From: an uncultured Alteromonadaceae bacterium
Lineage (GTDB): Bacteria > Pseudomonadota > Gammaproteobacteria > Pseudomonadales > Halieaceae
Assembly: GCA_964620555.1 (NCBI GenBank)
Contig: CAZUGZ010000001.1
Coordinates: forward strand, 13,667-77,666
Direction of reading: 5' to 3'
DNA: 64,000 nucleotides
The number at the start of each line of letters is the position of its first letter. The stretch's first letter is position 1. Of the stretch, positions 17,879 to 41,201 are shown in pieces. The notes below the pieces were generated by a model. It was not told the origin of the DNA and made no database searches. It worked only from the letters and a program-made list of their open reading frames with translations. Made by a program: the position numbers and the translations under genes.

Positions 17879-17979
17879 GGAACTGGGGAAATTTGCCTAT
17901 ATTATTGAGGTCTTTCCAATTTCATTCGTTACAGCCCCTTCGCGGGCCGGGGACGGCTGGAAATTGATGTTTCAATCGC

Positions 17980-17985
17980 TATACT
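17980..17985 (+). promoter_or_regulatory. Possible -10 element (TATACT) for the bCerS-like operon
   Basis: TATACT lies 40 nt upstream of GTG 18026 in the 147-bp divergent intergenic region. No convincing -35 element. Confidence 0.25.
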
Positions 17986-18025
17986 GCCCGGTCGCGTCGA
18001 GTCTGTCTACCGGAGTTTTTCCCCT

Positions 18026-19171
18026 GTGTCCAAGGTAGCAAGCCATTCCCTGACCCTGTTGCCGGTCGACGATGCGGCTACCCTGCGGCAATTCATTCGC
18101 GTTCCCCATCGCGTGTACCGGGATGACCCCAATTGGATTGCGCCACTGAATTTTCAGGAAAAACATCGTTTCAGCCCGGCTCGTCCCTTTTTTGAGCACG
18201 CCCGCTGGCGGGGCTGGGTGGTGCTTGGCGACGGCCGGCCACTGGGCCGGATCAGTGCCCAGGTGGATGATCTTCATCAACAGCGCTATCGGGACCATAC
18301 CGGCAGCTTCGGCATGCTGGAGGCGATAGACGACCCCGAGGTGTTTCAACTGCTGTTCGAGGCCGCGCAGAACTGGCTGCGCGAACAGGGCATGCGGCGG
18401 GTGCGTGGCCCCTTCAACCTGACCATCAACGAGGAGGTGGGTATGCTGGTGGAAGGCCTGCAGTACCCGCCCTGTTTTTTGATGGGACACGGTCGTACCT
18501 ATTACGACCTCAGGGTCAGGGACCAGGGCTTCGCCAAGTGCAAGGATGTGCTGGCCTTCCGCATCAATCCGGATTTTGAGGCACCACCGGTAATGACGAA
18601 GCTGGCGCAACGTGCGTCGCGAAAAGTCAGCGTACGGCCGCTGAACCGGAGCCGGCTGGCCCAGGACACCGAAATCATGCGCACCATTTTCAATGACGCC
18701 TGGCAGCACAACTGGGGTTTTGTGCCCTTTACCGACAACGAGTTCAGTGACCTGGTAAAGTCCCTGATCCTGGTGTTGCCCGAAGACTATGTGCAAATCG
18801 CCACCTATGAAGGTCGGCCGGCTGCCTTCATCGTCATGCTGCCCAACCTCAACGAGGCCATACGGGGCCTGCGCGGGCGCGTTTTTCCCCTGGGATGGCT
18901 CACCATACTGTGGCGCTTCAAGGTTCGTGGCCTGCGCTCCGGGCGGGTACCCCTGATGGGTGTGTGCCAGGAATTCCAGAATTCTCCAGCGGGTCCGGTC
19001 ATGGCCTTTCTGGTGATCGATGCCGTGCGCAAGCGGGCCGCCGCACGGGGTATGGTGGAAACCGAAATGGGCTGGGTGCTGGAAGACAACCAGGCCATGT
19101 GCAATATCATCGAGACCATTGGGGGCGAGGCCTACAAGCGCTATCGAATCTACGAGAAGGAGCTGGACTGA
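18026..19171 (+). CDS. GNAT-fold N-acyltransferase, candidate bacterial ceramide synthase (bCerS-like)
   Basis: GTG start, 381 aa. LRQFIRVPHRVYRDDPNWIAPL, GRISAQVDD, FGMLEA, VRGPFNLTINEEVGMLVEG, WQHNWGFVPFTDNEF, MGWVLEDNQAM...YKRYRIYEKEL. Family assignment is by pattern memory. The functional call rests on the genomic context. Confidence 0.55.
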   Translation: MSKVASHSLTLLPVDDAATLRQFIRVPHRVYRDDPNWIAPLNFQEKHRFSPARPFFEHARWRGWVVLGDGRPLGRISAQVDDLHQQRYRDHTGSFGMLEAIDDPEVFQLLFEAAQNWLREQGMRRVRGPFNLTINEEVGMLVEGLQYPPCFLMGHGRTYYDLRVRDQGFAKCKDVLAFRINPDFEAPPVMTKLAQRASRKVSVRPLNRSRLAQDTEIMRTIFNDAWQHNWGFVPFTDNEFSDLVKSLILVLPEDYVQIATYEGRPAAFIVMLPNLNEAIRGLRGRVFPLGWLTILWRFKVRGLRSGRVPLMGVCQEFQNSPAGPVMAFLVIDAVRKRAAARGMVETEMGWVLEDNQAMCNIIETIGGEAYKRYRIYEKELD

Positions 19172-19175
19172 GACC

Positions 19176-19997
19176 GTGCAACTGGACCCGAAATCAAACC
19201 GCCTGTCGGCCATAGTGCTGGCCGGGGACCGAACCAAAGCCGATTCGCTGATCGCCCATTCCGGGGTCCCTTGCAAAGCACTGATCGATGTCGATGGCAC
19301 TCCCATGGTGCATCGGGTGATCAATGCCCTGAGGAGTTCCCAACTGGTCAATGGCATCCTGTTGTCCGGCCCGGAACGCGAGGAACTTGCCGGCGATGCC
19401 ACGCTGAGCGACTGGGTTGAACGGGGCGAAGTAGCCTGGCATTCGCCGCTGCATACTCCCAGTACCAGTGCCTTTGCCGCGCTGCAATCCCTGCCCAGGG
19501 AGGCCCCGGTATTGCTTACCACTGCGGACCACCCCCTGCTCAGCAAGGAAATCATCGATGCCTACGGCCGCCAGAGTCTGACGGATGACGTGGATGTAAC
19601 TGTGGCTCTGGCCCCCTACGCGCTGGTGCGGGAGGCCTATCCCGGCATGAAAAAGACAGTCCTCCGCTTCAGCGACGGCGAGTTCTGCGGCTGCAACCTG
19701 TTCGCCTTCCTCACTCCGGAGGGTCGCCGGGTCGCCCATTTCTGGCAAAAGATTGAACAGCAGCGCAAGAAGCCGCTGGCGCTGATTGCCCTGTTGGGCT
19801 GGTGGCCCCTGCTGCGCTATCACTTCGGCCTGCTGCCGCTGGAGGAGGCCCTGGCGAAGTTGAGCAAGCGTCTGGGTTTGCGGCTGCGCGCGATCATCCT
19901 GCCCTACGCCAATGCGGCGGTGGACGTGGATTCGATTTCCGACCTGATGATGGTGCGTGGTTCCTTCGAAAAACTGACTGGCGAGCAACGTCTGTAG
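19176..19997 (+). CDS. MobA-like nucleotidyltransferase-fold protein (NTP_transf_3-like)
   Basis: GTG start 4 nt after the preceding stop, about 273 aa. AIVLAGDRTKADSL...PCKALIDVDGTPMVHRV resembles the LAGG-x-SxR-hydrophobic...K.L..hydrophobic.G.phi-hydrophobic N-terminal NTP-binding pattern. TTADHPLL. Confidence 0.6.
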   Translation: MQLDPKSNRLSAIVLAGDRTKADSLIAHSGVPCKALIDVDGTPMVHRVINALRSSQLVNGILLSGPEREELAGDATLSDWVERGEVAWHSPLHTPSTSAFAALQSLPREAPVLLTTADHPLLSKEIIDAYGRQSLTDDVDVTVALAPYALVREAYPGMKKTVLRFSDGEFCGCNLFAFLTPEGRRVAHFWQKIEQQRKKPLALIALLGWWPLLRYHFGLLPLEEALAKLSKRLGLRLRAIILPYANAAVDVDSISDLMMVRGSFEKLTGEQRL

Positions 19998-20010: not shown

Positions 20011-21261
20011 TCAAACGCGGCGGATGTCGGCTCCCAGACTGGCCAGCTTGGCGTCGATATTGGCGTAACCCCGGTCCAGGTGGTAGACGCGGTCAATGGC
20101 GCTTTGGCCATCGGCAGCCAGCGCCGCGATGATCAGCGAGGCGGAGGCACGCAGGTCGGTGGCCATTACCGGCGCGCCCTGTAACCGGTCGCGGCCGCGG
20201 ATGACGGCGGTGTGCCCCTGCAGTTCGATGTCCGCACCCATGCGCTGCAGTTCGGCGACGTGCATGAAGCGGTTCTCGAAGATGTTTTCGACGATGGTGG
20301 CGGTGCCCTCGGCCACTGCGTTCAGTGCCATGAACTGGGCCTGCATGTCGGTGGGGAAAGCTGGATAGGGAGCGGTGCTGATGCTGACTGCCCGTGGACG
20401 GCGACCGTGGCTTTGCAGGCGCACCCAGTCTTCCCCCTGCGTCAATTCGGCGCCACTGGCCCTCAGTTTGTCCAGTACGAAGCCCAGATGCGCGGGTTGC
20501 GTCCGGCGAATGGTGACGTCGCCACGGGTGGCGGCCGCCGCGGCCAGGAAAGTGCCGCTCTCGATGCGGTCCGGCGGCACTCGATGGCGGGCCGCATGCA
20601 GTTGCCTGCGCCCGGAAATGCTCAGTGTACTGGTGCCGATTCCCGCGATCTTGCTGCCCATGGCATTCAGCATGGTGGCGAGGTTACCGACTTCCGGTTC
20701 CAGCGCGGCATTCTCGATGGTGGTATCGCCCTGCGCCAGGCTGGCCGCCATCATCAGATTCTCGGTGGCGGTTACCGAGGGCATGGTGAGGCGAATGCTG
20801 GCCCCCTGCAGACGCCGGCACCTGGCTTTGATATAGCCGCCCTCTATCTCGATCTCGGCGCCCATGCGCTGGAGACCTGAGATGTGTTCGTTTACCGGGC
20901 GGGAACCGATGGCACAGCCCCCGGGCAGGGAGACCACCGCTTCACCGAAGCGGGCCAGCAGCGGGCCCAGCAACAGAATCGAACCGCGCATGGTGCGGAC
21001 CAGTTCATAGGGTGCCCGTAGCGAATGAACTCCCGCCGCGTCGACGTCGAGTTGGTCGCCATCCCGTTCCAGGGTGCATCCCAGCAGTTCCAGCAATTCC
21101 AGCGCGGTGCTGATGTCCCGTACCTGGGGAATATTGCTGATGGTGACCGGTTCCGCACTGAGCAGGGTGGCGGCGATGGTGGGCAGGGCGGCATTCTTGG
21201 CGCCGGCGATGGTAGTTTCCCCGAGCAGTGGTTCGCTGCCGCCGACGAGCAATTTTTCCAT
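20011..21261 (-). CDS. murA: UDP-N-acetylglucosamine 1-carboxyvinyltransferase homologue (enolpyruvyl transferase, MurA family)
   Basis: Start MEKLLVGG at 21261, about 416 aa. Collinear with E. coli MurA along its full length: GAKNAALP (Lys22), [12 protein letters not shown] (catalytic Cys115/Arg120), PDRIESGTF (Asp305), [24 protein letters not shown] (Arg397), HLDRGY. 1-nt overlap (TGATG) with the Spt stop. Confidence 0.9.
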
Positions 21262-22463
21262 CAGGCGACCCGTCTGGCGCGGATCAGATCGGAATCCAGC
21301 AAGCCTGCGTAGGCCCCGATGATGTGCTCGATCTGCTCGGGATTGTGGGCGGCACTCAGGCTGCAACGCAGCAGGCAGGTGGTGGAGGGAGAGGCGGGGG
21401 GAATTACCAGGTTGACGTACACCCCGGATTGCATGAGCGCATTCCAGCATTGGATGGCCTGATCCCGGCTGTCCAGTTCCACCGCCACCACCGGGCTCGG
21501 GGTCGGGCCCAGTTTCAGGCCCAGGGCCTGCAGACTGTCGTAGAGTCGGTGCGAGTACTCCCACAGGCGGGTGCGCAGCTCCGGTTCCTGGCGCACAATT
21601 TTCAGTGCCTCGCGGGTCGAGGCCACCACCGAGGGAGCGGAGGAAGCAGTGAAGATGTAGGCCCCTATGCAATAGCGGATACTCTCGAGCTGTGAATGTC
21701 GACTGACACAGTAGCCGCCGGTACCGCCCAGGCTCTTGCTGAAGGTGCCGACCGTGAAATCCACATCGGCCTCGATTCCAGCGGCTTCACTGGCACCGCG
21801 ACCCAACTCGCCCAGCACTCCCAGGGAGTGCGCCTCATCCACCATCAGGTAGCCACCGTATTGCCGTTTGACCGCGGCTATCTCCTGCAGCGGCGCGGTA
21901 TCTCCCAGCATACTGTAAATGCCCTCGACCACGATCAGGGTGTCGTCGGCGCGTTCGCCGAGGCGCCGCAGGCGCTTGGCGAGATCCTGGGGATCGTTGT
22001 GCTTGAAGCGGATGATATCGGCTCCGCTGAGTTTTACCCCGGCATAAATGCTTGCGTGGCTGTCGGCATCCAGCAGGATGACGTCGCCCGGGCCCGCCAG
22101 GGTGGCACACATGCCCATGGTGGAAGAGTAGCCGGTAGTAAAGCAGATGGCGTGGTCAACCCCGTGGAATTCGGCCAGTTCCCGTTCCAGCAACTCGTGC
22201 TCCAGGAAGGAACCATTGGCCACCCGGGACCCGGTGGTGCCGGTGCCCCAGCGTTCGGCGGCGGCCTGGGCCGCGGCGATACAGCGGGGATGCCAGGCCA
22301 GGCCCAGGTAGTTGTTACTGCCCGCCAGGATGACCCGAAAGCCGCCGACCATGCCTTCCGTGGCGGACAACAGGCGCTCGGTAACGGCGCCAAAGGGCTT
22401 GACTTCACGCTCGGCCAGTTGCCGCTGAAACTCGATCATGGATTGGAATTTGTCGAACAGCAT
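21261..22463 (-). CDS. spt: Alpha-oxoamine synthase, serine palmitoyltransferase-like
   Basis: 400 aa PLP enzyme. [20 protein letters not shown]-lysine motif [14 protein letters not shown] associate the TFSKS form with Spt; BioF/Kbl typically have G-K-A. A dedicated ACP gene lies 5 nt upstream. Confidence 0.75.
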
Positions 22464-22468
22464 GGGCT

Positions 22469-22711
22469 TCAGTCCTGCAGTTCCCCCAGCTTGGTGGCGA
22501 GTTGGCCGATAGTGCTGATGGCGGGAAGAATATTCAAGGGGATGGATAGATCGAACTCATCTTCTATCTGCTCGATGAATTCCATTACCTCCAGTGAACT
22601 CATGCCGAGGTCGCCGACCAGTTCGGTGGTCTCCGACAAGCCCGGTTCCGGGGTCTGCGCGGACCCGAGCTGGCGGTAGATGAAGTCCAGGTATTGCTGG
22701 TAGTTCGCCAT
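22469..22711 (-). CDS. Acyl carrier protein (dedicated)
   Basis: 80 aa from MANYQQYLDF. Phosphopantetheine site region GDLGMSSLEVMEFIEQIEDEF. Confidence 0.8.
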   Translation of the reverse strand: MANYQQYLDFIYRQLGSAQTPEPGLSETTELVGDLGMSSLEVMEFIEQIEDEFDLSIPLNILPAISTIGQLATKLGELQD

Positions 22712-22850
22712 GGTTGTCACATTCCCGACTGCGCCGTTGGAGTAGAACCTGTCTGGCACTGTCGAGGGCGAGTCGCCAGCACAGCCCAGATGCCATACAC
22801 TGGTGCGGGGACTCCCGTTATTCCAGCATCGAAACTATACCGACCGTGAC

Positions 22851-23936
22851 ATGCCAATACCAGTAGTCTGGGTGATCGACGCCTACCGGGCCGGAGAACG
22901 CAGCCAGGTGCTGGCGCTGGCAGAGGCGCTGGACTGGCCATTTGCGGTGAAGCGTCTGCGCTATCGAAAATACGAGTTCGCGACCAATATTCTGCAGCGC
23001 AGCGACCTGCGTGGGATTCGCCGCGCAACTTCCGATGCGCTGGCGGCGCCCTGGCCGGACCTGGTGATTTCTTCGGGGCTGCGCAATGAGGCGGTATGCC
23101 GGTGGATCAGAAACCAGTCCGGCGGCGCCACGCGCATCGTCCACGTGGGTAACCCCTGGGCTGATCCGGCGCGCTTTGATCTGGTGATTACCACTCCCCA
23201 ATACCGTATCCCGGTGCGTGACAACGTGCTGCAAAACCGTTTGACCCTGAACGCGGTCAGCCGGGATCGATTGCGCGCTGAAGCGGCTGTCTGGGAGCCG
23301 CGCTACCGCGATTTGCCCACTCCCTACACTACCGTGGCGGTGGGCGGCAACAGCGGCCCCTTCACCTTCGGCAAGCGCGCTGCCGCCCGTCTGGCACGGC
23401 AGGTCAACCAGTTGGTGCGGCACAGCGGCGGTTCGGCCCTGGTGACCACCAGTGCGCGCACCTCCGCCGCTGCCGCCGCAGTGCTGCAGGCCGGGTTACA
23501 GGTGCCCAACCACTACCACCGGTGGCGCGCGGACGACCCGGCCAATCCCTACTTTGGCATGTTGGCAGTGGCCTCACAATTGGTGGTAACCGGTGACAGC
23601 ATCGGTATGATTTCGGAAGCCTGCGCCACCGGCAAACCGGTGTACCTGTTTGACCTGGGCCGCGGCATGCTGGCCATGGAGGACGCCGCCGACGGAGCGT
23701 GGTACGAAAACGACTGGCGTGTGGGCGGGGTACTCTACCGCCTGTTGATGCGCCTGCTGTGGCGCAAGCTGAGCCGTGATATCCGCCTGGTTCACAGACC
23801 CCTGGTGGCGCAGCGGCGCGTGGCCTGGCTGGGCAAACCGGCACCTTCACCAGCCCACACCGACGCCGACATGGACTCGGCAGTGGCCGCAGTGCGGAAT
23901 TTATTTGCCGATTTCCCCCGCCTCGACCGACACTAG
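22851..23936 (+). CDS. ELM1/DUF1022-family putative glycosyltransferase, paralogue 1
   Basis: Start MPIPVVWVI. PWPDLVISSGLRNE, HVGNPWADPARFDLVITTPQY, VAVGGNSGPF, LVTTSARTS, NPYFGMLAVASQLVVTGDSIGMISEACATGKPVYLFDL. The 3' end overlaps the convergent ABC exporter by 36 nt. Confidence 0.75.
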   Translation: MPIPVVWVIDAYRAGERSQVLALAEALDWPFAVKRLRYRKYEFATNILQRSDLRGIRRATSDALAAPWPDLVISSGLRNEAVCRWIRNQSGGATRIVHVGNPWADPARFDLVITTPQYRIPVRDNVLQNRLTLNAVSRDRLRAEAAVWEPRYRDLPTPYTTVAVGGNSGPFTFGKRAAARLARQVNQLVRHSGGSALVTTSARTSAAAAAVLQAGLQVPNHYHRWRADDPANPYFGMLAVASQLVVTGDSIGMISEACATGKPVYLFDLGRGMLAMEDAADGAWYENDWRVGGVLYRLLMRLLWRKLSRDIRLVHRPLVAQRRVAWLGKPAPSPAHTDADMDSAVAAVRNLFADFPRLDRH

Positions 23937-25640
23937 TTCGGCGCCACCGGCTTCCAGGCGGTAGACCCGGTCTGCCGCTTCCATCATCGAGCGATTGTGG
24001 GTGATGGCGAGTATGGTCAGTTGTCCCTTGAGACTCTCCAGGGTACGCCGCACCGCCGCTTCGCTGTCGGCATCCAGGGCGCTGGTGGCTTCGTCGAGTA
24101 TCAACAGTTGCGGCCGATTGATCAGCGCCCTGGCGATGGCGATGCGCTGGCGCTGACCACCCGACAGTTTGCCGCCGCCTTCCCCCACCATGGTGGCACA
24201 GCCCTGGGGCAGGGGTTCGATGAATTGCCAGGCACCGGCCGCTCGCAGTGCCTGTTCCACGTCGCCGGCATCGAGTGCGGGATCGCCCAGGGTGACATTG
24301 TGCTCGATAGTGTCGTGCAGCAACACGGTTTCCTGGGGCACGTAACCGATCAGGCTGCGCCAGGCCCGGATGTCCAGTTCTCCCAGCGCGGTACCATCCA
24401 CCGCCACCGTCCCGGAATCCGGTTGTATCAAACCGATGGCGAGATCGATGAGACTGGTCTTGCCGACACCCGAGGCGCCCACCAGGGTGGTGAGTCGGCC
24501 CGCCTCCAGGTACAGATTCAGATTCGCAAATACCTGCCGCCGATCGTAACTGAGGTCGATGGCGGAGAAGGAGACGCCTCGCTTCAGGCTCGGGGTGGCG
24601 CCACCAAACAGATGTTCCCGCTCCTGCTCCGCGGCTTCGACCGATTCCAGCATCGCCCAATAGGCGCTTTCGCCCTGGGCCAGCTTCTGGTACTGCTTCT
24701 GCACTTTGCCGAGGAAGGCAAAACCACGCCCCAGGGTCAGTACCAGTACCATCACCGTGGGCAAATCCATGGTGAACAGTTGCAGGGCGGCGTAAATTCC
24801 GAGCGCGATGAAAACCGCGAACAGAAATTCCTGGGCGCCGTCCAGTACCGCACCGCTGAGCACTGCCTTGCGCAACGCCTTGTTGAGTCGCAGCGTGTCC
24901 CCGGCCAGGGCCCGGTCCGCCAGGTGCTCCCGGGCCATGGCCTTGAGCGGTTTGACCGATTGCAGGGTGTCGGTCAGGTTGGCCATCAGGGAAGTGAGCA
25001 GCTTGGTCTGGCGCTTGCCGGCCCGGCGCGTGATGCGGACCAGGAAGTGTGAGCACAGCATGACCAGGGCACCCGCCGCCACCGCCGCCAGGCTGGCACT
25101 CCAGGACACCGCAAACGCCACCCCTCCGTACACCGAGGCCTGCACCAGGTAGGTCAGGGCGGTGGCGCCGTGGACGAAAGAAGCGGATGCGCGCTGGGCC
25201 TCCGTGGCCAGGGAATTGGTCAACTTGCCGATCGGTTGGTGCAGGAAATACTTCCATTTGCTGCGCATTACCGCCCGCAACATTCGCAGCCGCAGGTCGG
25301 TGCCGACCTGGGCGGCGGTGTAGCCCACCTGGCGGTTGGCGACGATTAGCAGCAGGCTTTTCAGCAGCACCATGAGGACGATGATCAACAACAGGTTGAC
25401 CAGGCTGGGGTCGATATCCATGCGCCCCAACAGTTCCAGTACCTGGCGTTCGAAATCGTTTTGCATGGCGCTGTCCGGCAAGCCCGCGGCGCTACTGGCC
25501 TGGGACCCCAGTGCCACGTTCAGCAGCGGCAGCAGGGCGGACAAACCCAGGCCTTCCATCAATCCGGACAACAGCAGCGCCATCAGCATCAGCACGGTTT
25601 GCAGTGGGTAGGCAGAGAAAAAACTCAGCATCAACCGCAT
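23901..25640 (-). CDS. ABC exporter, fused TMD-NBD half-transporter (MsbA-like lipid flippase family)
   Basis: 579 aa. Six predicted TM helices, Walker A GASGVGKTS, signature LSGGQRQRIAIARAL, Walker B LLILDEATSALD. Confidence 0.9.
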   Translation of the reverse strand: MRLMLSFFSAYPLQTVLMLMALLLSGLMEGLGLSALLPLLNVALGSQASSAAGLPDSAMQNDFERQVLELLGRMDIDPSLVNLLLIIVLMVLLKSLLLIVANRQVGYTAAQVGTDLRLRMLRAVMRSKWKYFLHQPIGKLTNSLATEAQRASASFVHGATALTYLVQASVYGGVAFAVSWSASLAAVAAGALVMLCSHFLVRITRRAGKRQTKLLTSLMANLTDTLQSVKPLKAMAREHLADRALAGDTLRLNKALRKAVLSGAVLDGAQEFLFAVFIALGIYAALQLFTMDLPTVMVLVLTLGRGFAFLGKVQKQYQKLAQGESAYWAMLESVEAAEQEREHLFGGATPSLKRGVSFSAIDLSYDRRQVFANLNLYLEAGRLTTLVGASGVGKTSLIDLAIGLIQPDSGTVAVDGTALGELDIRAWRSLIGYVPQETVLLHDTIEHNVTLGDPALDAGDVEQALRAAGAWQFIEPLPQGCATMVGEGGGKLSGGQRQRIAIARALINRPQLLILDEATSALDADSEAAVRRTLESLKGQLTILAITHNRSMMEAADRVYRLEAGGAELVSVEAGEIGK

Positions 25641-25691
25641 CGACTGAAAGCTCCCGGATTGGCGTGTGCGACTGTATTCTCGATCATTCCG

Positions 25692-26765
25692 TCACCAGCG
25701 CATGGAGAGCAGCGACAGGCCGGCGCACAGCAGCACGAAGAGTATCGGGATGGATGCCGTAAGCTGCGGGCTGAGCTGGGCCATTTGCCCCAACGCCCAG
25801 ATGATCTGGGTGGCCATGAAAAACCCCACGCCAATCAGCGCTCCCAGCGCCAGCCGGATACCGATGACCGGTCCGCGCTGGGTACTGACGATGGCGCTCA
25901 TGGGGATGGCCAGCAGTACCATTGCGGCCACCGCCAGGGGCAGGGTCGCCCGTTGCCAGAAGTTCATGGCGTGGGCCGCGTAGGGTTGCCGGTTGCGCTT
26001 GAGGTAGGCGATGTACTCTCCCAGTACCGACAGCCGGATGCTGTCGCTGCTAAGCGACAGGGTAGGTAACTCGGCGGGTGACCAGAGGTTGTCGATTTCC
26101 ACTTCCCGCCGCAGGGTGGTGACCAGTTCACCGTCCTGCAACCGCTTTTGCCTGACCTGCTGGAACTGCCAGCGGCGATCCTCGCTGACGCTGGCGCTGG
26201 ATGCCTCCAGCGCCAGCAGCAGGCGTCCCTGGTCATCGAATTGAAACAGACTGATGGCGCCGGGCTGGTGCCCCTTGCCCATGGCGCCCAGGTGAATAAA
26301 GCGCTGCTCCTGCCGGGACCATACTCCGCCGTCGGGCAGCAGTTCGGGAAGCTCGTTGCGGGCGGCGGATTTCATTTGCTGGGCAGACTGAAAGAGTACG
26401 GGCGAGATCAGTTCCGTCAGTATCCAGAGCACTGCCAATAGTCCGCCGGTGGGTAGTGCAATGGCTTTGAGCAGTGAACTTCGCGACACTCCGGATGCGC
26501 AAATGACGGTCAACTCATGGTGGCGGCCCAGCCCCGCCAGGGCCAGGATGGTACCCAGCAGGAAGATTACCGGCGCCAGCGCCAACAGGCGATTGGGCAG
26601 AGTCAGCAAGGCGAACTGAATGACCTGTGGGATCCCGTACCCGCCGTGAACGCGTTCCAGTTGTTCCATCAGGCCGATGATGGCAAACACCGTTCCCACT
26701 ACCAGCAGCGCCGACAGCCAGCCGCTGAGCAGACGGGTAGCGAGATAGCGGGTCAGGATCGTCAT
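25692..26765 (-). CDS. LptG-like permease (YjgP/YjgQ family)
   Basis: Start MTILTRYLATRLL at 26765 (ATGA overlap with the upstream gene), about 357 aa. Three TM segments, a periplasmic middle domain, then three TM segments. Confidence 0.8.
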   Translation of the reverse strand: MTILTRYLATRLLSGWLSALLVVGTVFAIIGLMEQLERVHGGYGIPQVIQFALLTLPNRLLALAPVIFLLGTILALAGLGRHHELTVICASGVSRSSLLKAIALPTGGLLAVLWILTELISPVLFQSAQQMKSAARNELPELLPDGGVWSRQEQRFIHLGAMGKGHQPGAISLFQFDDQGRLLLALEASSASVSEDRRWQFQQVRQKRLQDGELVTTLRREVEIDNLWSPAELPTLSLSSDSIRLSVLGEYIAYLKRNRQPYAAHAMNFWQRATLPLAVAAMVLLAIPMSAIVSTQRGPVIGIRLALGALIGVGFFMATQIIWALGQMAQLSPQLTASIPILFVLLCAGLSLLSMRW

Positions 26766-27829
26766 TCCGGGCCGGTTCCGGGCCGGCGCAACAGGTACAT
26801 CAATACCAGGAATATGAAGGCATAGGCGGACCACAATCCGGGAACCGTCGGTATGCGGCCCTGTTCGATAAAGGTTCGGGTGACGCTGGTGAGGCCGAAC
26901 AGGACCACGTAGAGAGCACTGGCCATAAAAAAACAACGCAATCGGGAATCTCCCGGGTTCGAGCGGCCCAGCGGCACCGCTACCAGGGCCAGCAGCAGGG
27001 TGGCCAGCGGCGTGGACAGGCGCCATTGATATTCGGCTATGTCCTTGGCCTGGTCGGATTGGCCCAGTTGCGCGGTAGTTTCCGCCTTGCGCCGGTAGTT
27101 GACCAGATCCTCGTCGTGTTCCATGTCAATTGTCAGATGGTCGAAACGAACGGTGATGTCCCGGGATGCCCGCCGATCCAGAAGGTAGTGATAACCGCGA
27201 TAAAAATGCGCGGTGAGCGCTGCTCCGGGGTTCAGTGCGGGCAGAGCGGCCTGCTCGGCAACGATGATTTCAGTACGCTGCTCGCGCGGGTGCTGCTGAT
27301 GCAGGAAGACGTTCTCGTGCAGGCCCTGTTCCAGGTCGATATCCTCGGCGATAAACAGGTAGTCGCTGTTGCCCATGTTAACGAATTTTCCGGTGGCCAT
27401 TTTTTTCAGGTCGAAGCGCGCCGCAGCTTCCGCCTCCAGGCGGTACATTTCGCGGTAGGCCCAGGGCCGGCCCTCGATGGAGATGAACCCGGTGATCACC
27501 GCCACCAGCAGCGAGAGCTGGAATACCGCTCCCAGTATGCGCCGGCGGCTGATTCCACAGGCGTGCAGAACATGCATTTCCGCGTCCCGGTGCAGCCTGC
27601 TGATGGCCGCCAGCACCGAAAAAAACAGTGCAGAGGGCATCAGAACCTCCAGGGTGACGAAGGTATTGAGGGCGACCAGGTTGAAGGCCGTGGCAAGATT
27701 CATTTGCCCCTGGGCGGCCAACTGAAGTTGCACCGTGGTCACGTAACCGACAAATATCAATACCAGCAAACCCAGGCCGCCGAGGAAGGGGCGCAGAATC
27801 TCGGCGTTGATATAGCGGTCGACAAGCAA
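26762..27829 (-). CDS. LptF-like permease (YjgP/YjgQ family)
   Basis: TTG start, 355 aa. (M)LVDRYINAEILRPFLGGLGLLVLIF, HACGIS (conserved LptF motif, compare E. coli MHACGLS), and a C-terminal three-TM bundle. Confidence 0.8.
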   Translation of the reverse strand: MLVDRYINAEILRPFLGGLGLLVLIFVGYVTTVQLQLAAQGQMNLATAFNLVALNTFVTLEVLMPSALFFSVLAAISRLHRDAEMHVLHACGISRRRILGAVFQLSLLVAVITGFISIEGRPWAYREMYRLEAEAAARFDLKKMATGKFVNMGNSDYLFIAEDIDLEQGLHENVFLHQQHPREQRTEIIVAEQAALPALNPGAALTAHFYRGYHYLLDRRASRDITVRFDHLTIDMEHDEDLVNYRRKAETTAQLGQSDQAKDIAEYQWRLSTPLATLLLALVAVPLGRSNPGDSRLRCFFMASALYVVLFGLTSVTRTFIEQGRIPTVPGLWSAYAFIFLVLMYLLRRPGTGPE

Positions 27830-27946
27830 AACCGGGCTCCCGGGGACAGCGCGTTTGCCGCCGATTGTAACACCACGGCGAAACTGGCCATTTTCCCGAC
27901 CTTGTCACATACTTTGCTCAACGCTGCAGCCCGAGCAGGACACTAC

Positions 27947-29059
27947 ATGTCACAGCCACACACCTGGATCATGGTCGGCGACAAACGCGGCGACAACGGC
28001 CAGGTGGAGACCATTGCCGCGGCCTTGCCCTGGTCCTGCGAGCACAGATACCTGCACATGAAGCCGCGCTACAGGCAGGGAAAGCCGCGCTTTTCCGCCT
28101 CTCTGCACCACCTGGACCGGGATCGTTCCGACCCGCTGCAGGCACCCTGGCCGGACCTGATACTGACCGTTGGCCGGCGACCCTCGATGGCGGCCCTGTG
28201 GGTGAAGCGACAGTCCGGGGGACACAGCAAGGTGGTGCTGGTGGGCAAGCCCACGGCGCGCATGCTGGATTTTGATCTGATCGTATGCAGTGCGGAAAAA
28301 CTCCTGCCGCCGATGCCCAACTGTCATCCCGTGACCCTGCCACTGATGCGGGTCGACGCCGGGGAGGTGGCGCAAGAGGCCGAACGCTGGCACCGGCGGC
28401 TGGCCGATCTGCCGCGCCCGCTGGTGGCCTTTTTCATCGGTGGCTCGACCAGCCCCTACGTCCTGAACCGGCGGGTGGCCCAGCGGCTGCTCGCCCTGGC
28501 CAGACAGGTATGCGAAGAACTGGGCGGTACCGCCTATGTGGTCAGCAGTCGGCGCACTTCTTCAGCGGTGTTGCAAACCCTGCGCCAGGATCTTCCCGCC
28601 GGGGCGCGCTTCTATCAGTGGTCCGAGCGCGGCGAAGACAACCCCTACCGGGCGCTGTTGGGACTGGCAGATGGTTTTGTGGTCACCGGTGACAGCATTT
28701 CGATGCTGGTGGAGGTGGTCTATCTGCGTCGTCCCCTGGCCATTTTCCCGCTGCCCTATGCTGCCCTGGGCCGCCTGGACCAGTACCGCCGCTCCTTCGC
28801 CCGCTGGCTGTTCAACCCGCGCCTGTCGTCCTCGGGCGACCGCCTGCGCCACCGCCTGGCGCGGCTCGTCTTTCACCTGGACGTTTTTACCCTGTTGTCT
28901 TCGACCCGCGATTTTCGGGCCTTTCACCAGTTGCTGGTGGACCGGCAACTGGCGGTCTGGAGTGGACAACCACTGTGTGAGCCCAGCGGTTCACTGCCCG
29001 AAGATGTTCCACTCGCCATCGAGCGGATTCAGGCCCTGTTCGGAGGCCGGTTTGACTGA
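27947..29059 (+). CDS. ELM1/DUF1022-family putative glycosyltransferase, paralogue 2
   Basis: Start MSQPHTWIMVGDKRGDNGQV. PWPDLILTVGRR, FFIGGSTSPY, VVSSRRTS, NPYRALLGLADGFVVTGDSISMLVE. The N-terminal 307 aa of the 677-aa track ORF are antisense to lptF and were discarded. Confidence 0.75.
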   Translation: MSQPHTWIMVGDKRGDNGQVETIAAALPWSCEHRYLHMKPRYRQGKPRFSASLHHLDRDRSDPLQAPWPDLILTVGRRPSMAALWVKRQSGGHSKVVLVGKPTARMLDFDLIVCSAEKLLPPMPNCHPVTLPLMRVDAGEVAQEAERWHRRLADLPRPLVAFFIGGSTSPYVLNRRVAQRLLALARQVCEELGGTAYVVSSRRTSSAVLQTLRQDLPAGARFYQWSERGEDNPYRALLGLADGFVVTGDSISMLVEVVYLRRPLAIFPLPYAALGRLDQYRRSFARWLFNPRLSSSGDRLRHRLARLVFHLDVFTLLSSTRDFRAFHQLLVDRQLAVWSGQPLCEPSGSLPEDVPLAIERIQALFGGRFD

Positions 29060-30143
29060 ACCTCGCGTCTGGCTGTTGTTGGGGCGCAAGGCGGGAGACA
29101 ATACCCAGGTGCGAGCGCTGGCAGCGGAACTGGGGTGGCCGTGGGAGGAAAAGCACCTGGTTGCCCGCCCCTGGGAATTGCTTCCCCACCTGCTGTTGGG
29201 CACTACGCTGGCGGGCATCGACCGGCGCGCCTCGAGTGCGCTGACGCCCCCCTGGCCCGACCTGGTGATCAGCGCCGGGCGCCGCAATGAACCGGTGGCG
29301 CGCTGGGTCCGGGCGCGCAGCCGGGGCCGCAGCCGCCTGGTACACGTCGGCAGACCCTGGGCCGAGCCGAAGAACTACGACCTGGTGGTCACCACCCCCC
29401 AGTATTTTCTGCCCGATGCTGCCAATATCCAGCGCAATCGCCTGCCATTGTACCGCTTGCAAAGCCGTCAACTGGAGGCGGCCGCGACCAGGCTGGAACC
29501 GCACTTGGCCGATTTGCCGCGTCCCTTCACCGCGCTGCTGGTAGGGGGCAGCAGCGGACCGAGCGTGTTCACCGGGGCCAAAGCGTGTCGCCTGGGACAA
29601 CTGGCCCAACGACTGATTGGCGAACTGGGGGGCTCCCTGCTGATCAGCAATAGTGCGCGGACCCCGCCGGCGGCCTGGCGGGCACTGCTCGCCCAGCTCT
29701 CGGTGCCGCGTTTTACCCACGATTACGGACAGGCGGGAGTCGACAACCCCTACCTGGGAATGCTGGGAATTGCCGATCGCTTTATCGTTACCGGCGACAG
29801 TGTGTCGATGCTGGCCGAAGCCTGCGCCATGGGCAAGCCATTGCACATCTTTGACCTGGAGGATCCTTCCGGGCCCTGGTGGCGTCACCGGCACAACTAC
29901 CGCTACCGACCCCTGGTTCATCACCTGGTCTCGGCCTGGGCGCCCCGGCGCCTGCGGCGGGACGTGAGTCGAATTCGCCAGGCCCTGCTGGAAGCCGGGC
30001 AGGCAGTGTGGCTGGGTCAGGACGAGACGGTATTGCGGCCCGCCGCCGGCCGCGAACCCGGGGAACTGGTGGCGACCGCCCGGCGGGTGCGGGAACTACT
30101 GTCCCGGGATGCCCCTTCGCCTAATCCGCCAGACGGTAATTGA
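29052..30143 (+). CDS. ELM1/DUF1022-family putative glycosyltransferase, paralogue 3
   Basis: TTG 29052 chosen by N-terminal alignment with the paralogues ((M)TEPRVWLLLGRKAGDNTQV). An alternative ATG is at 29004. PWPDLVISAGRRNE, HVGRPWAEPKNYDLVVTTPQY, LLVGGSSGP, NPYLGMLGIADRFIVTGDSVSMLAEACAMGKPLHIFDL. Overlaps paralogue 2 by 8 nt. Confidence 0.7.
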   Translation: MTEPRVWLLLGRKAGDNTQVRALAAELGWPWEEKHLVARPWELLPHLLLGTTLAGIDRRASSALTPPWPDLVISAGRRNEPVARWVRARSRGRSRLVHVGRPWAEPKNYDLVVTTPQYFLPDAANIQRNRLPLYRLQSRQLEAAATRLEPHLADLPRPFTALLVGGSSGPSVFTGAKACRLGQLAQRLIGELGGSLLISNSARTPPAAWRALLAQLSVPRFTHDYGQAGVDNPYLGMLGIADRFIVTGDSVSMLAEACAMGKPLHIFDLEDPSGPWWRHRHNYRYRPLVHHLVSAWAPRRLRRDVSRIRQALLEAGQAVWLGQDETVLRPAAGREPGELVATARRVRELLSRDAPSPNPPDGN

Positions 30144-32190
30144 GCACCACCCCGACGTAGAAATTTCGTTCCGGTGCGGGCTCGAAGTAGCGCCCGCCGA
30201 AGGCGTTGATGCGAATATTGCCGTGATAGCTTTGGTCGAACAGGTTATTGATGCCCGCATAGGGGCGGATACGCCAGCGGCCCGCTGCAAATTCCCGCGC
30301 CAGGCGGAAATTTGCGACCGAGTACGCCGACACCTCGGTGGTGTTGGCATTGTCTGCGTAGAGATCCCCGGAGTAACGGGCTTCCAGGGTTCCGCTGAAG
30401 CCGCTGTCGGACCGGTACGACAGACCGAGGTAGGCGAATCGTCGCGGCAGCCCGGGCAGCCGGTTGCCGCCGAAGTCGTTGCCGCCGTCGTCGACGAAGT
30501 CGTCGAAGTTGAAGTCGGACCAGGTCGCGGCAGCGTCAATGCGCAGTCCGTTGGCAAACTCCCACTGCAGCGCTGCCTCGATGCCATTGCGTGAGGAACT
30601 TCCGCTGTTGGAATAAAAGGTTCGCCCCGGGAACTCCGGCAACTCGAACGGAATCAGTTCCTCTTCGAGCTGGATAGTGAACCACGCCAGTTCGTAGTAG
30701 AGGGCGCCCCCGGTGTGCCGGTAGCCGATCTCGAAGTTGTCCGCGGTCTGCGCATCGAGTTGCGGATTGAAGCCGCCACCGGCATCGGGATTGGCCAGCT
30801 CCGTGGTGGTCGGCGTCTCGAATCCGCTGCTGTACGAAGCAAACAGAACGCCGTCGTCCATCCGGTAATTCAGGGCCACCGAAGGACTGGCCTGGTCGAA
30901 TTCGAGATCGCCCGAATCGTCGCCATTGGCCAGGAAACGGTCGCCGATGTCGTAGCGAATCCGGTCGTGGCGCAATCCCGCGAGAATGGCCCAGGCCGCG
31001 TCGAGTTGATAGCGTGCCTGCACATAGATACCGGTACTGTCGACTCGCTCGCGTTGCGCGAAGGCCAGGGCTCCCGGCTGGCCCTGGTCGTTGTCGAAAC
31101 GTTTTCGATTGTCGTCCTGCCGGTCGAGGTCCACGCCGAAGCTGAGGTGTAACGGCACGGCTGAACTTTCAGCGATGCTGTATTGCGCGCCGAAGCCATG
31201 GACGAATCGGTCGAGGTCCACGGAACCGCCCGCGACGAACGGCAGCCGGTTGGCAAACTCGCGCCAGGTGTAATAGGTGCGCAAGCGCAACTCGCCCGCG
31301 GGCCGCGAGCGCCGATAGACGACGCCGAATCTCTGCTGCTCCAGTGCCTCACCCCCGTCAAACTGCACATTGCGTTCCCGTGCCGAGGTTGGATCGGCGG
31401 CGGCCTGAGCGGCGGTAATGGCGCCGGGATCCTCTGCCTTTGGCTGGTCGCTGAGGTTGAGCGAGAAAATCAGTTCGTCCGCGGTGCCCAGGGGCACGCT
31501 CAGTTTCGAATTGACCACCCTGCCGCGGGCTTTGGAATGATCGCGGTAGCCGTCCAGCGCGCTGCGCGAGAGATTGACGAGGTAGTTCGCGGCACCGAGC
31601 TTGCCGGCGGATTTGAGCTGCGTTTGCGAATAGCCATGATCGCCGGTGGCGATTCGGCCCTCCAGGTAGGGCATGTCAGTCTCCAATTCGCTGGAAATCG
31701 CGATGACACCTCCCGCCGCATTGCCGTACAGCGACGCCGCCGGGCCGCGCAACACTTCAATGCTCTGGATCGAACCGATGTCGATGCTGTCCACGCCGGC
31801 CTGACCGTCGGGAAGAGTTTCCGGAATGCCATCGACCAGAATCCTGATGCCGCGAATGCCAAAACTCGAACGAGCGCCGAAGCCACGCAGCGAAATTCGC
31901 AAATCCTGGGCAAAGTTGTAGCCATTTTGCAGGTAGAGGCCGGGAACACCGGCCAGGGCTTCCTGGAGCCCCAGTTGCTGCGTATCCAGTTGGATGCGGT
32001 CTTTGTCGATGATGGATACCGAACGCGCGACGTCGCGCACGGAGGATTCCATTCGCGTTGCGGTGATCACGATTTCGTCTACTGGCGCGCCGTTCGCAAG
32101 CTGTGCCGAACCGGGTGAGACCCCCAGCAAAAGCGTGAGCATCGGCGCCAGCCATGCTGAAACTCCCGCGCCAACGTTTCTGGAGCGCAT
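30121..32190 (-). CDS. TonB-dependent outer-membrane receptor
   Basis: Start MRSRNVGAG with a signal peptide. Plug domain (EIVITATRMESSVRDVARSVSIIDKDRI, IEVLRGPAASLYGNAAGGVIAISS) and a long beta-barrel ending ...FYVGVVLNYRLAD. Confidence 0.85.
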   Translation of the reverse strand: MRSRNVGAGVSAWLAPMLTLLLGVSPGSAQLANGAPVDEIVITATRMESSVRDVARSVSIIDKDRIQLDTQQLGLQEALAGVPGLYLQNGYNFAQDLRISLRGFGARSSFGIRGIRILVDGIPETLPDGQAGVDSIDIGSIQSIEVLRGPAASLYGNAAGGVIAISSELETDMPYLEGRIATGDHGYSQTQLKSAGKLGAANYLVNLSRSALDGYRDHSKARGRVVNSKLSVPLGTADELIFSLNLSDQPKAEDPGAITAAQAAADPTSARERNVQFDGGEALEQQRFGVVYRRSRPAGELRLRTYYTWREFANRLPFVAGGSVDLDRFVHGFGAQYSIAESSAVPLHLSFGVDLDRQDDNRKRFDNDQGQPGALAFAQRERVDSTGIYVQARYQLDAAWAILAGLRHDRIRYDIGDRFLANGDDSGDLEFDQASPSVALNYRMDDGVLFASYSSGFETPTTTELANPDAGGGFNPQLDAQTADNFEIGYRHTGGALYYELAWFTIQLEEELIPFELPEFPGRTFYSNSGSSSRNGIEAALQWEFANGLRIDAAATWSDFNFDDFVDDGGNDFGGNRLPGLPRRFAYLGLSYRSDSGFSGTLEARYSGDLYADNANTTEVSAYSVANFRLAREFAAGRWRIRPYAGINNLFDQSYHGNIRINAFGGRYFEPAPERNFYVGVVLNYRLAD

Positions 32191-32329
32191 TGATTCCCCT
32201 GGCTGGAACAGCAGTGTGGTGTTGGCAGCCGCGCGGATGATACCGCAATTGATCAGGTGATTCAGGTCAGACTGTGCTACCGTGATCGCCCTCAGCGGAT
32301 CTGTCCACCATGCCGGGGAGAAGGAGCCG

Positions 32330-33616
32330 ATGCCCTTGGGCAATGCCACGACCAGGCGGGGTCTCGAGACCACGACGGATTACCAAAACCCCCATCGCCC
32401 GCTTCCGGTCAGGGTCTTCAACCGTATCGGAAGGTCGTGGAATGACCCGGGAGTGTTTGCCGCTCCGGGCACGGGGCGACTCCTGGACGATGCCCGAAGA
32501 AAGACCGGCCTTTTGGATTTCGGTGACGACGGTCACTTTGAGGCCCTGCAGGTTCTGCTGCAGTCCATCGGGGACGAAGCCGAGTTGACTGCAACGGGCC
32601 GGCTCATACAGAGAAACCGCCTCTCCGGCGCACTCGCCTGTCGGCTGAGGATCGAGCACCTGCTGAACAAACATCCCGAAATTCTTGACGTCGATCTCGG
32701 CTCGGTCATCGTGATTACCGGATTGCAGCGCACCGGCACCACGCTGCTGCACCGTCTGCTGCATTGCAACCCGGATATTCGCGGTGTTTCGGGTGAGGAA
32801 GCGCTCGATCCGGTGCCGGCGGGCGGGGCGGCAGGCCGGATGGCCGCGGGCCGCAGACGGCGTGCGCTGCTGGCCCAGCGGGCCATTGCCTACCTGTCAC
32901 CACAATTCATGAAAGTCCATCCCATCGACCACGGCGAACCGGAGGAAGACGTCCTGTTGCTCGATTTGAATTTCATGAGTCAGGCACCGGAAGCAACCAT
33001 GCATGTACCAACCTACTCCCGCTGGCTTGAGCAACAGGACCATACCCGCAACTACGAATATTTTCGGAAAATCCTGAAGATCCTCTGCTGGCAACGTCCT
33101 GCCGGCCGGTGGGTACTCAAGACGCCACACCACATGGAATATCTGGACGCACTACTGAAAGTTTTTCCCGAAGCCACAATTGTGCAAACCCACCGTGACC
33201 CGCAAATGGCGCTGCCGTCCTTCTGCAGCATGGTTGCCCACAGCCGCGCCATCTTCAGCGATCGGGTCGATCCCGTGGAAATTGGTGATCATTGGTGCCG
33301 AAAGACCCGCAGGATGGTCGAGCTGACTATGGAGACCCGGGCCGCAGCCGATTCCGAACGATTTGTCGATGTCTCCTACCACCACCTGTTGGATGATCCG
33401 ATGGCACAGCTCAGGCGCATCTACGATCGGATCGGGTTAGAATTTGACCATGAAGCCGAGCGAATCGCCCGGCAGTACCTGAAGAAAAATCCAAAAAATC
33501 GCTATGGCAAACACACCTATCGACTGAGCGATTTCGGATTGAACGGGGAAGTCGTCGAAAGACAGTTTGCGGATTATCGGGCGCAGCATGCCATTCCGTT
33601 TGAACGGTCAGGTTGA
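32330..33616 (+). CDS. P-loop sulfotransferase family protein
   Basis: ATG preceded by GGAGAAGGAG (an alternative GTG is at 32282). 5'-PSB motif ITGLQRTGTTLLHRLL. LKTPHHMEYLDALLKVFPEATIVQTHRDP (3'-PB region). Confidence 0.7.
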   Translation: MPLGNATTRRGLETTTDYQNPHRPLPVRVFNRIGRSWNDPGVFAAPGTGRLLDDARRKTGLLDFGDDGHFEALQVLLQSIGDEAELTATGRLIQRNRLSGALACRLRIEHLLNKHPEILDVDLGSVIVITGLQRTGTTLLHRLLHCNPDIRGVSGEEALDPVPAGGAAGRMAAGRRRRALLAQRAIAYLSPQFMKVHPIDHGEPEEDVLLLDLNFMSQAPEATMHVPTYSRWLEQQDHTRNYEYFRKILKILCWQRPAGRWVLKTPHHMEYLDALLKVFPEATIVQTHRDPQMALPSFCSMVAHSRAIFSDRVDPVEIGDHWCRKTRRMVELTMETRAAADSERFVDVSYHHLLDDPMAQLRRIYDRIGLEFDHEAERIARQYLKKNPKNRYGKHTYRLSDFGLNGEVVERQFADYRAQHAIPFERSG

Positions 33617-33651
33617 GATGGCAGCGGCGCGGGACAAACTGGGGTGAAGCG

Positions 33652-34680: not shown

Positions 34681-34792
34681 GCGATGACGAAGAAGGGGAC
34701 GGAATGACGAAGAAGGGGGGTGTGATCGAAATTCGCCAACGCTGCCTCGCTCGCTTACCATACCGGCATCCAGGGTAAGGGCGGAGTGATCG

Positions 34793-38727: not shown

Positions 38728-38925
38728 ATGGTCCTTTCCTGTCACGGCGTCGCCGGAGCGACGTTGGCTGGCAATTGCCCACCATGATAGTACGATTACT
38801 GTATCTACCGTTATGAAAAAGTGACGTAGCGTTGCCGCTTGTATTCCATTCAGGTGGTAATCCATGTAACGATATTTCCGATGGTGTATCTTGATTGAAT
38901 CGATGACAGACAGAGGTGAATACTG

Positions 38926-40329: not shown

Positions 40330-40413
40330 GCGTCTGCGCGATTGCCGCTCACCGAGCTTGGTGTTACGGTGGCCTGGTCTGTCCCCCTGGACGTTTCGGA
40401 TTCGGAGGAAAAA

Positions 40414-41110: not shown

Positions 41111-41201
<91 letters not shown>

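Follow-up and report, generated by a model that had tools for sequence, protein, structure and literature searches.

Within a 64,000-nucleotide stretch of DNA from an uncultured Alteromonadaceae bacterium, placed in the Halieaceae by GTDB (assembly GCA_964620555.1, contig CAZUGZ010000001.1, positions 13,667 to 77,666; hereafter the window, a gammaproteobacterial segment of ~62% GC), two permease genes of the lptF/lptG type and an ABC exporter gene lie together in a sphingolipid gene cluster. We find that this trio is a conserved module co-inherited with the serine palmitoyltransferase gene spt, and sequence comparisons support assignment of the permeases to a paralogue type of sphingolipid loci, not to the housekeeping type linked to pepA. 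In our view, the trio is probably a dedicated export module for the lipid of the surrounding cluster. The three genes are:

27829 to 26762, minus strand: lptF2-type permease of 355 amino acids (PF03739), with a TTG start.
26765 to 25692, minus strand: lptG2-type permease of 357 amino acids (PF03739), whose start ATG overlaps the lptF2 stop as ATGA.
25640 to 23901, minus strand: ABCB-type half-transporter of 579 amino acids, joining a transmembrane domain to a nucleotide-binding domain (TMD-NBD; ABC_membrane and ABC_tran), a candidate flippase.

A preliminary description of this DNA had reported two YjgP/YjgQ-type permeases of these lengths joined by an ATGA overlap, a TMD-NBD exporter 51 nt further on and no NBD gene accompanying the pair; coordinates and family matches agree with it, and no NBD gene adjoins the permeases. 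The PF03739 (LptF_LptG) match covers model positions 1–353 of 353 in the LptF-like protein (E = 1.5e-56) and 1–348 of 353 in the LptG-like protein (E = 7.2e-58), and the alignment of both to solved LptF and LptG is full-length. A crude hydropathy scan gives five to six transmembrane (TM) segments per permease, placed as in Escherichia coli LptF and LptG, with a polar middle of 150–180 residues. The N-terminus of the LptF-like protein, MLVDRYIN, is family-like, and GGGAG stands 9 nt upstream of its TTG start. Similarity to E. coli LptF/G is distant, as had been judged by eye (25% identity by tblastn). We call the trio an operon from the ATGA overlap, the 51-nt gap and the conserved gene order; promoter and terminator scans gave nothing above shuffled background. 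Open reading frames (ORFs) at 17972–19555 (minus), 23404–25257 (minus), 23997–25052 (plus) and, in its upstream part, 27026–29059 (plus) overlap family-supported genes and were set aside as high-GC artefacts.

Is the pair the housekeeping lptFG of its genome or a paralogue? E. coli served as our reference. Of 5426 complete genomes, 4102 contain an spt locus that includes an additional lptF-lptG pair; this coexists with the canonical pair adjoining pepA, and RefSeq labels both pairs plain lptF and lptG. Scores on the NCBI equivalog models for LptF (TIGR04407) and LptG (TIGR04408) are:

Canonical E. coli pair: 385 bits (TIGR04407) and 456 bits (TIGR04408).
Canonical Pseudomonas aeruginosa LptF: 387 bits (TIGR04407).
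E. coli spt-locus pair: 318 bits (TIGR04407) and 308 bits (TIGR04408).
Window pair: 264 bits (TIGR04407, cut-off 230) and 252 bits (TIGR04408, cut-off 240).

Like the window proteins, E. coli LptF2 and LptG2 score above these cut-offs, and the equivalog call was rejected as a criterion for separating housekeeping genes from paralogues. On one common phmmer scale, the window LptF scores 153 bits against the E. coli spt-locus LptF2, 123 bits against canonical P. aeruginosa LptF and 98 bits against canonical E. coli LptF, whereas the two canonical proteins score 172 bits against each other.

A YjgP/YjgQ phylogeny, proposed in the preliminary description, was built for the LptF half of the family. 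A search of 1.84 billion representatives returned 150 relatives, and the canonical-type set came from a search with a profile built from 20 canonical-type representatives. In a simple distance tree of 222 sequences (neighbour-joining, NJ, rooted on LptG, 100 bootstraps), the window LptF and E. coli LptF2 form a clade that excludes six pepA-linked canonical landmarks in 90 of 100 bootstraps. Sequences that share the window's context, in which the permeases stand with an ABC exporter and ELM1-family putative transferases, are monophyletic in 92 of 100. The canonical clade spans enteric, Pseudomonas and marine gammaproteobacterial sequences. No canonical-type LptF retrieved shares more than 38% identity with an spt-context LptF, and those canonical-type relatives whose context was looked up show the arrangement valS-holC-pepA<>lptF-lptG, as in E. 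coli. Of 10 canonical-type representatives for which names were looked up, none bore a Halieaceae label, and no canonical-type match shared a WGS prefix with the contigs carrying the cluster.

The two types also differ in residues. At 25 of 60 positions conserved in canonical LptF, including Arg212, the cluster type has changed, and basic residues at the canonical LptF TM1 positions are fewer in the cluster-type clade. LptG K34, K40 and K41 were tried as a substrate signature and rejected, these lysines not being conserved even in non-enteric canonical LptG. The equivalents of E. coli LptF E84 and LptG E88, the coupling-helix glutamates that engage the groove of LptB, are Glu in the window proteins and in all cluster-type sequences compared (72/72 for LptF, 69/69 for LptG). 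This invariance fits a shared LptB.

Neither a second PF03739 gene nor pepA was found within the 64-kb window. We think it likely that a canonical lptFG pair exists elsewhere in the source genome, because the window pair falls in a paralogous clade and has lost canonical invariants, because the hosts examined or described that produce lipopolysaccharide (LPS), namely E. coli and Caulobacter, keep such a pair, and because the window encodes LptA, LptB and synthesis of 3-deoxy-D-manno-octulosonic acid (Kdo).

Co-inheritance was followed through 78 loci of GTDB species representatives (Halieaceae, Pseudohaliea, Congregibacter, Thiogranum, Thioalkalivibrio, Thiohalobacter and further Gammaproteobacteria). 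Each feature was scored over the loci long enough to show it:

lptG directly downstream of lptF: 73/73 loci.
ABC exporter downstream of lptG: 67/67 loci.
Convergent ELM1 gene downstream: 62/63 loci.
Divergent ELM1 gene upstream: 67/71 loci.
spt downstream: 57/59 loci.
pepA nearby: 0/78 loci.

The layout of the module in this clade is ELM1-lptF2-lptG2-ABC exporter-ELM1-acp-spt(-murA). Its best conserved member is the exporter, with a median identity to the window protein of 63%, compared with 57% for LptF and 45% for LptG; in the best species-representative locus, LptF reaches 75% and the exporter 80%. Halieaceae (Cellvibrionales) are the nearest relatives of the window. The exact LptF is on record on just two metagenome contigs of 5 kb, and the exact exporter on an NCBI contig of 108 kb. 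Named exporter relatives occur in Haliea sp. E17, Ca. Litorirhabdus singularis and Mangrovimicrobium sediminis. One metagenome-assembled genome (MAG), MFD09848.bin.2.30, holds two separate cluster-type lptF loci (L036 and L039, 58% and 57% identical to the window), which could reflect duplication, strain heterogeneity or mixed binning. Two further loci (L066 and L075) carry the full ELM1-lptFG-ABC-spt module in MAGs labelled Klebsiella; their LptF is 40–46% identical to that of the window and sulfur-oxidiser-like, and the labels are probably wrong.

The exporter had been described as an MsbA-like flippase, a term that applies to its fold only. Pfam domains, motifs and matches to ABCB1, ABCB4, PglK and MsbA in the Protein Data Bank (PDB) identify it as a type IV (ABCB-like) half-transporter, and its ATPase motifs are intact (Walker A GASGVGKT, an LSGGQ signature and a Walker B with the catalytic Glu, LLILDE). 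Its sequence nevertheless indicates that it is not MsbA, because it falls far below the MsbA equivalog cut-off (TIGR02203, 236 against 602 bits), shares 27.7% identity with E. coli MsbA, has lost two of three lipid A-binding residues of MsbA and has no lpxK neighbour. The other NCBIfam equivalogs are also missed (NF008381, 189 against 867 bits; HepA, 276 against 725 bits), and among solved half-transporters PglK scores slightly higher (178 bits, over residues 198–565 only) than MsbA (163 bits). The three residues are R78, R148 and K299 of E. coli MsbA, the basic ring that reportedly binds the glucosamine phosphates of lipid A (Mi et al. 2017). Their equivalents are K, V and A in the window exporter, and K (66/66), V (55/66) and S or A (58/66) in the aligned exporter family. 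The downstream neighbour is a convergent ELM1 gene and not lpxK; E. coli shows the order msbA-lpxK, an adjacency typical of Gammaproteobacteria.

What, then, would the exporter move? Gene context makes it a candidate flippase for the cluster's lipid, because it always follows lptF2G2 and fills the slot of a Wzx-like candidate in the Caulobacter and E. coli clusters. Its nearest solved half-transporters include the lipid flippases PglK and MsbA. An ABC exporter in place of a Wzx-like gene looks like a non-orthologous replacement, which would imply that the flippase step belongs to the pathway.

The closest described system is that of Caulobacter, where CC_1168, CC_1156 and CC_1155 were named LptC2, LptF2 and LptG2 in 2024 and, together with the Wzx-type CC_1166, proposed as the route by which phosphosphingolipids reach the outer membrane; orthologues of CC_1166 to CC_1168 are absent from the clusters of beta- and gammaproteobacteria (Olea-Ozuna et al., PMC11324152). 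Caulobacter tolerates deletion of lptF2, lptG2 and lptC2 only when spt or cpgB is missing, these genes being essential only when the anionic sphingolipid is made, and LptF2 and LptG2 co-purify together and with the single LptB (Uchendu, Isom and Klein, April 2026, bioRxiv 10.64898/2026.04.12.717747). The same work finds LptF2/LptG2 pairs in many alpha- and gammaproteobacterial sphingolipid loci, including that of E. coli UTI89, and does not address the flipping step (10.64898/2026.04.12.717747). No sphingolipid flippase or transporter had been identified according to a 2024 pathway study (PMC11087976). The preliminary description, which regarded an Lpt-type machine for a sphingolipid as undescribed, was wrong on this point: such a machine was proposed in 2024 (PMC11324152) and backed by binding and genetics in 2026 (10.64898/2026.04.12.717747).

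Judged from published descriptions, the window resembles the Caulobacter system in having a PF03739 pair (there CCNA_01214/CCNA_01213 = CC_1156/CC_1155) in an spt/acp/aasR/cerR/bcerS cluster that also holds ceramide-kinase-like and Tam41-like genes and lacks lptB, and in the model of a shared LptB and Lpt bridge; function has been demonstrated for Caulobacter only. Caulobacter has LptC2 and the Wzx-type (IPR002797) CC_1166, neither of which occurs in the window or the loci examined, whereas the window clade carries an ABCB-type exporter within the operon, along with three ELM1/GT-B genes. The E. coli spt-locus pair, between yghO and yghS, likewise adjoins acp-spt, a fatty acyl-AMP ligase gene, a CerR-like gene and YghO, and its LptF2 also lacks Arg212 (Ala). 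It is, however, only 28–31% identical to the window pair, and its locus holds a Polysacc_synt (Wzx-like) protein, a YtfJ-family protein and YghS/T-type kinases but no ABC exporter and no ELM1 genes. In E. coli O55:H7 RM12579 (L006, 3661986–3672543), the CerR-like gene is a pseudogene.

With canonical LptB2FG(C) (E. coli b4261/b4262; PDB 6MHU, 5X5Y and 6MIT) the window pair shares family, length, full Pfam match and coupling-helix Glu, and its hydropathy is similar. Unlike the canonical proteins, it belongs to another clade that is never pepA-linked, scores 120–200 bits lower on the TIGR models and, in LptF, has changed Arg212 and 24 other invariants and has fewer basic TM1 residues. The exporter shares the type IV TMD-NBD build, a length of ~580 amino acids and full ATPase motifs with MsbA, the lipid A-core flippase, and PglK, the lipid-linked oligosaccharide flippase, and differs from MsbA in the identity, equivalog score, R148/K299 and lpxK features given above.

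The loss of Arg212 bears on LptC. This beta-jellyroll residue is Arg in 31 of 34 sequences of the canonical clade and in none of 118 of the superclade that holds LptF2; its equivalent is His in the window protein, and the local motif changes from G-x-R-Y-[ED]-G-x-P-G in the canonical type to G-x-[NSHA]-Y-L-L-D in the cluster type. The gene slot of LptC was examined at the left end of the window, among the genes for the shared parts of the Lpt machinery:

1435 to 2160, minus strand: lptB, 373 bits to P. aeruginosa LptB over its full length, the only LptB-type ATPase in the window.
2168 to 2707, minus strand: lptA (TIGR03002, 122 bits, cut-off 72).

Gammaproteobacterial lptC usually sits between kdsC and lptA. 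In the window, kdsC (2704–3225, HAD) overlaps lptA by 4 nt with no lptC between them, and no window ORF scanned matched PF06835 (LptC). E. coli mutants with LptF R212G, R212S or R212C are viable without LptC through a six-protein bridge from LptF to LptA to LptD, and LptC2 has been found only in Caulobacter (10.64898/2026.04.12.717747). Because Arg212 is lost in the clade, lptC is missing from its usual slot and LptC2 is reported only from Caulobacter, we tentatively suggest that the cluster-type extractor may hand its cargo straight to LptA, independently of LptC.

The sphingolipid cluster around the trio falls into a first block at 12.4–30.1 kb and a second at 42–48 kb. Its principal genes are:

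22803 to 23936, plus strand: ELM1-family (PF06258) putative transferase (E = 2e-62), convergent with the exporter gene, the 3' ends overlapping by 36 nt.
27947 to 29059, plus strand: ELM1-family putative transferase (E = 1.1e-48), divergent from lptF2 across a 117-nt spacer.
29052 to 30143, plus strand: third ELM1-family putative transferase (E = 1.4e-53).
22469 to 22759, minus strand: specialised acyl carrier protein (ACP), AcpR-like (PP-binding, E = 1.3e-9), true start probably ~22711.
21261 to 22463, minus strand: serine palmitoyltransferase, Spt (NF047599 equivalog, 575 bits, cut-off 500).
20011 to 21261, minus strand: murA (TIGR01072, 564 bits, from residue 138 of a long ORF), a context gene that does not belong to the transporter.
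18026 to 19171, plus strand: probable bacterial ceramide synthase (bCerS), YghO-like (47% identity over 362 amino acids to E. coli YghO).
15950 to 17878, minus strand: acyl-ACP synthetase, AasR-like (AMP-binding), true start ~17690.
15005 to 15946, minus strand: CerR-like reductase of the epimerase/dehydrogenase family (Epimerase, NAD_binding_10).
43284 to 44576, plus strand: Wzy_C/O-antigen-ligase-like membrane protein (Pfam, E = 3.8e-16), adjoining ELM1 genes in loci L003 and L008.
45420 to 46370, minus strand: DAGK_cat kinase resembling the ceramide kinase CC_1160 (Pfam), in the same cluster in L003 and L008.

The trio is therefore flanked on both sides by ELM1-type genes and ends 1.14–1.19 kb from acp-spt (for an ACP start at ~22711–22759), in line with the 1.2 kb originally given, and the lptB assignment at 1435–2160 was likewise borne out. 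The second and third ELM1 genes are also gene calls on the identical contigs L001 and L002. ELM1 proteins belong to the GT-B clan and are present in Acinetobacter outer-core loci for lipooligosaccharide (LOS) (PMC10327509). The E. coli spt locus offers counterparts for several enzymes: Spt is 52% identical to E. coli Spt, the AcpR-like protein 36% identical to the ACP of that locus and the AasR-like protein 46% identical to its fatty acyl-AMP ligase. YghO sits in the same E. coli locus, and the YghO-like protein of the window matched no Pfam family. CerR-like homologues adjoin spt in L061, L073 and L083.

The first block further includes an NTP-transferase gene; the second also holds an FkbM methyltransferase gene and a Tam41-like gene. 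In the Caulobacter ceramide-phosphoglycerate pathway, the kinase, the Tam41-like gene and the NTP-transferase have parallels in CC_1160, CC_1161 and CC_1153/CC_1152, the ceramide-kinase role of CC_1160 being given in S1 Text of PMC11324152. At the cluster edge (12464–14991), a gene for a fatty-acid hydroxylase (PF04116) stands between two of the Lip_A_acyltrans (LpxL/HtrB-like) type, which hints that the sphingolipids may be hydroxylated and secondarily acylated in a lipid A-like manner. The acp, spt and murA genes are co-oriented, and the spt stop and murA start overlap by 1 nt, a junction also seen in L003, L004 and most of L008–L085. Thus, an essential peptidoglycan gene appears to be co-transcribed with sphingolipid genes.

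How could the module work? The lipid would be built on the cytoplasmic face of the inner membrane by the cluster's enzymes (Spt, AcpR, AasR, bCerS, CerR, the ceramide-kinase-like kinase, the Tam41-like protein, the ELM1/GT-B transferases and the LpxL-like acyltransferases). A homodimer of the ABCB-type half-transporter would then flip it to the periplasmic leaflet. From there, an LptF2-LptG2 heterodimer, docked through its coupling-helix glutamates on a dimer of the LptB encoded at 1435–2160, would extract the lipid, a step for which the experimental support comes from the Caulobacter homologues. The beta-jellyroll domains would finally pass it to the LptA bridge and on to LptDE. This last step may dispense with LptC, since the arginine whose replacement frees E. 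coli from LptC is missing from LptF of this clade. The substrate, the flipping by the exporter, the sharing of LptB and LptA and the independence from LptC are what we infer from this set of genes and residues. A flip-then-extract route with a borrowed LptB had been put forward in the preliminary description. The paralogous pair, the retained LptB-docking Glu, the missing NBD partner and the co-inherited exporter fit such a route, although it is not new. The interpretation is largely right mechanistically, its core idea already being in the literature.

A more far-reaching version of this route, which we hold only tentatively, is that the in-operon half-transporter is the long-missing bacterial sphingolipid flippase, that it forms with LptB2-LptF2G2 a self-contained module free of LptC, and that the cargo is a multiply acylated, glycosylated, LPS-like phosphosphingolipid.

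Several points weigh against a dedicated sphingolipid exporter. Both permeases still pass the LptF/LptG equivalog cut-offs, and NCBI names their relatives simply LptF. The NJ tree is based on simple distances, and its support for a canonical clade without the window LptF and E. coli LptF2 is just 63 of 100 bootstraps. Arg is also absent at position 212 from 61 of 67 sequences that the tree left unplaced; if some of these are canonical LptF of other classes, the case for LptC independence would be weaker. The top family matches of the exporter (HepA, CydD, PglK and MsbA) do not point to a lipid in particular as its substrate. Genes of an LPS character are present in the cluster too, namely two Lip_A_acyltrans genes, the Wzy_C ligase-like gene and ELM1 genes of the Acinetobacter LOS-core kind, and the cargo could accordingly be an LPS-related glycolipid. 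For this clade the proposed route, like a canonical pepA-linked lptFG pair and a true msbA in the source genome, is a prediction from sequence.

Could the exporter carry a glycan instead? Acting like PglK, it might flip a glycan carried on undecaprenyl or some other precursor made by the ELM1 enzymes; the ligase of Wzy_C/WaaL type would join this to a ceramide anchor in the periplasm, LptB2F2G2 would extract the resulting LPS-like glycosphingolipid, and the sphingolipid itself would cross the inner membrane in another way. Among solved half-transporters PglK indeed scores highest (178 bits; MsbA, 163 bits), the best NCBIfam match is the polysaccharide exporter HepA, and the conserved cluster combines a ligase-like gene with three ELM1/GT-B genes of a family that occurs in LOS outer-core loci. 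However, all these scores lie far below the family cut-offs and the gap between PglK and MsbA is small, no polyprenyl-phosphate glycosyltransferase of the WecA/WbaP type was found in the window, and the exporter is tied more tightly to lptFG and spt (67/67 loci) than to Wzy_C. We regard this explanation as unlikely, though worth keeping in mind.

A second alternative is that the lineage has lost canonical lptFG and that a sole pair of the F2G2 type carries both LPS and sphingolipid. There are precedents for a single pair: the only LptFG pair of Sphingomonas wittichii lies in its sphingolipid region, and Bacteroidetes and Myxococci have one pair each (10.64898/2026.04.12.717747). S. wittichii, however, makes no LPS, whereas the window encodes kdsD, kdsC, LptA and LptB; LPS-producing E. 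coli (examined) and Caulobacter (described) keep a canonical pair as well, and the clade has fewer basic residues at the canonical LptF TM1 positions. Such a dual-purpose pair seems improbable to us. Slightly less credible still is that these are the genome's only lptF, lptG and msbA-type genes, moving LPS from a position beside spt that means nothing: the equivalog calls, the interleaving of envelope housekeeping genes (kdsD, kdsC, lptA, lptB and murA) with the cluster and the lack of a second lptFG pair within 64 kb would suit it, but the exporter is too far from MsbA (236 against 602 bits, 28% identity, two of three lipid A-binding residues lost, no lpxK), the permeases lie outside the pepA-linked clade with canonical invariants lost, and the NCBI label does not discriminate, since E. 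coli has both pair types under the same names.

The remainder of the window gives the setting of the cluster. Its left end carries rpoN, lptB, lptA, kdsC, kdsD, yrbG, mlaC, hisG, hisD and zapE; mlaC is the only mla operon gene here, and the interval from mlaC to hisG (6038–8360) has a GC content of 53%, against ~62% for the window, and no Pfam-recognisable ORFs. A block of ~12 kb (30121–42258), which ends at a tRNA-Ser(CGA) gene (41111–41201), splits the ELM1 genes from the Wzy_C/kinase part and is likely an inserted island, because the flanking cluster parts are adjacent in the relatives L003 and L008. Its cargo comprises genes for a TonB-dependent receptor, a sulfotransferase, a short-chain dehydrogenase/reductase (SDR), an FAD oxidoreductase, an MMPL/RND-type transporter, a Rieske oxygenase and a Cu/Zn superoxide dismutase. 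The transporter gene (36373–38900, minus strand) lies inside a 1264-residue ORF (36373–40167), the upstream part of which overlaps the well-supported Rieske gene on the opposite strand. An MmpL transporter beside Myxococcus spt has been put forward as an alternative sphingolipid exporter (10.64898/2026.04.12.717747). The right end (56782–63901) is occupied by neutral-lipid genes, encoding an alpha/beta hydrolase, SDRs, a patatin-like phospholipase with DUF3336, a wax-ester synthase/diacylglycerol acyltransferase (DGAT) and a CoA-transferase.

What is new here is the ELM1-lptF2-lptG2-ABC-ELM1-acp-spt(-murA) layout, the exporter as a candidate sphingolipid flippase and the absence of Arg212 across the clade. 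One consequence is practical: since spt-locus paralogues are labelled plain lptF and lptG, counts of lptFG genes and inferences on LPS drawn from annotation can mislead, and position 212 is a possible sequence marker separating the two LptF types within Gammaproteobacteria. For the passage of bacterial sphingolipids across the inner membrane, this clade supplies a concrete flippase candidate, and cultured members (Pseudohaliea rubra, Haliea sp. E17, Mangrovimicrobium sediminis and Thiohalobacter thiocyanaticus) make the idea testable. Should the more far-reaching version be correct, the loss of LptF Arg212 would naturally correspond to the E. coli suppressor mutations that make LptC dispensable, and abundant marine Gammaproteobacteria (the Halieaceae/OM60 group and sulfur-oxidising relatives) would carry an LPS-like phosphosphingolipid on their surface.

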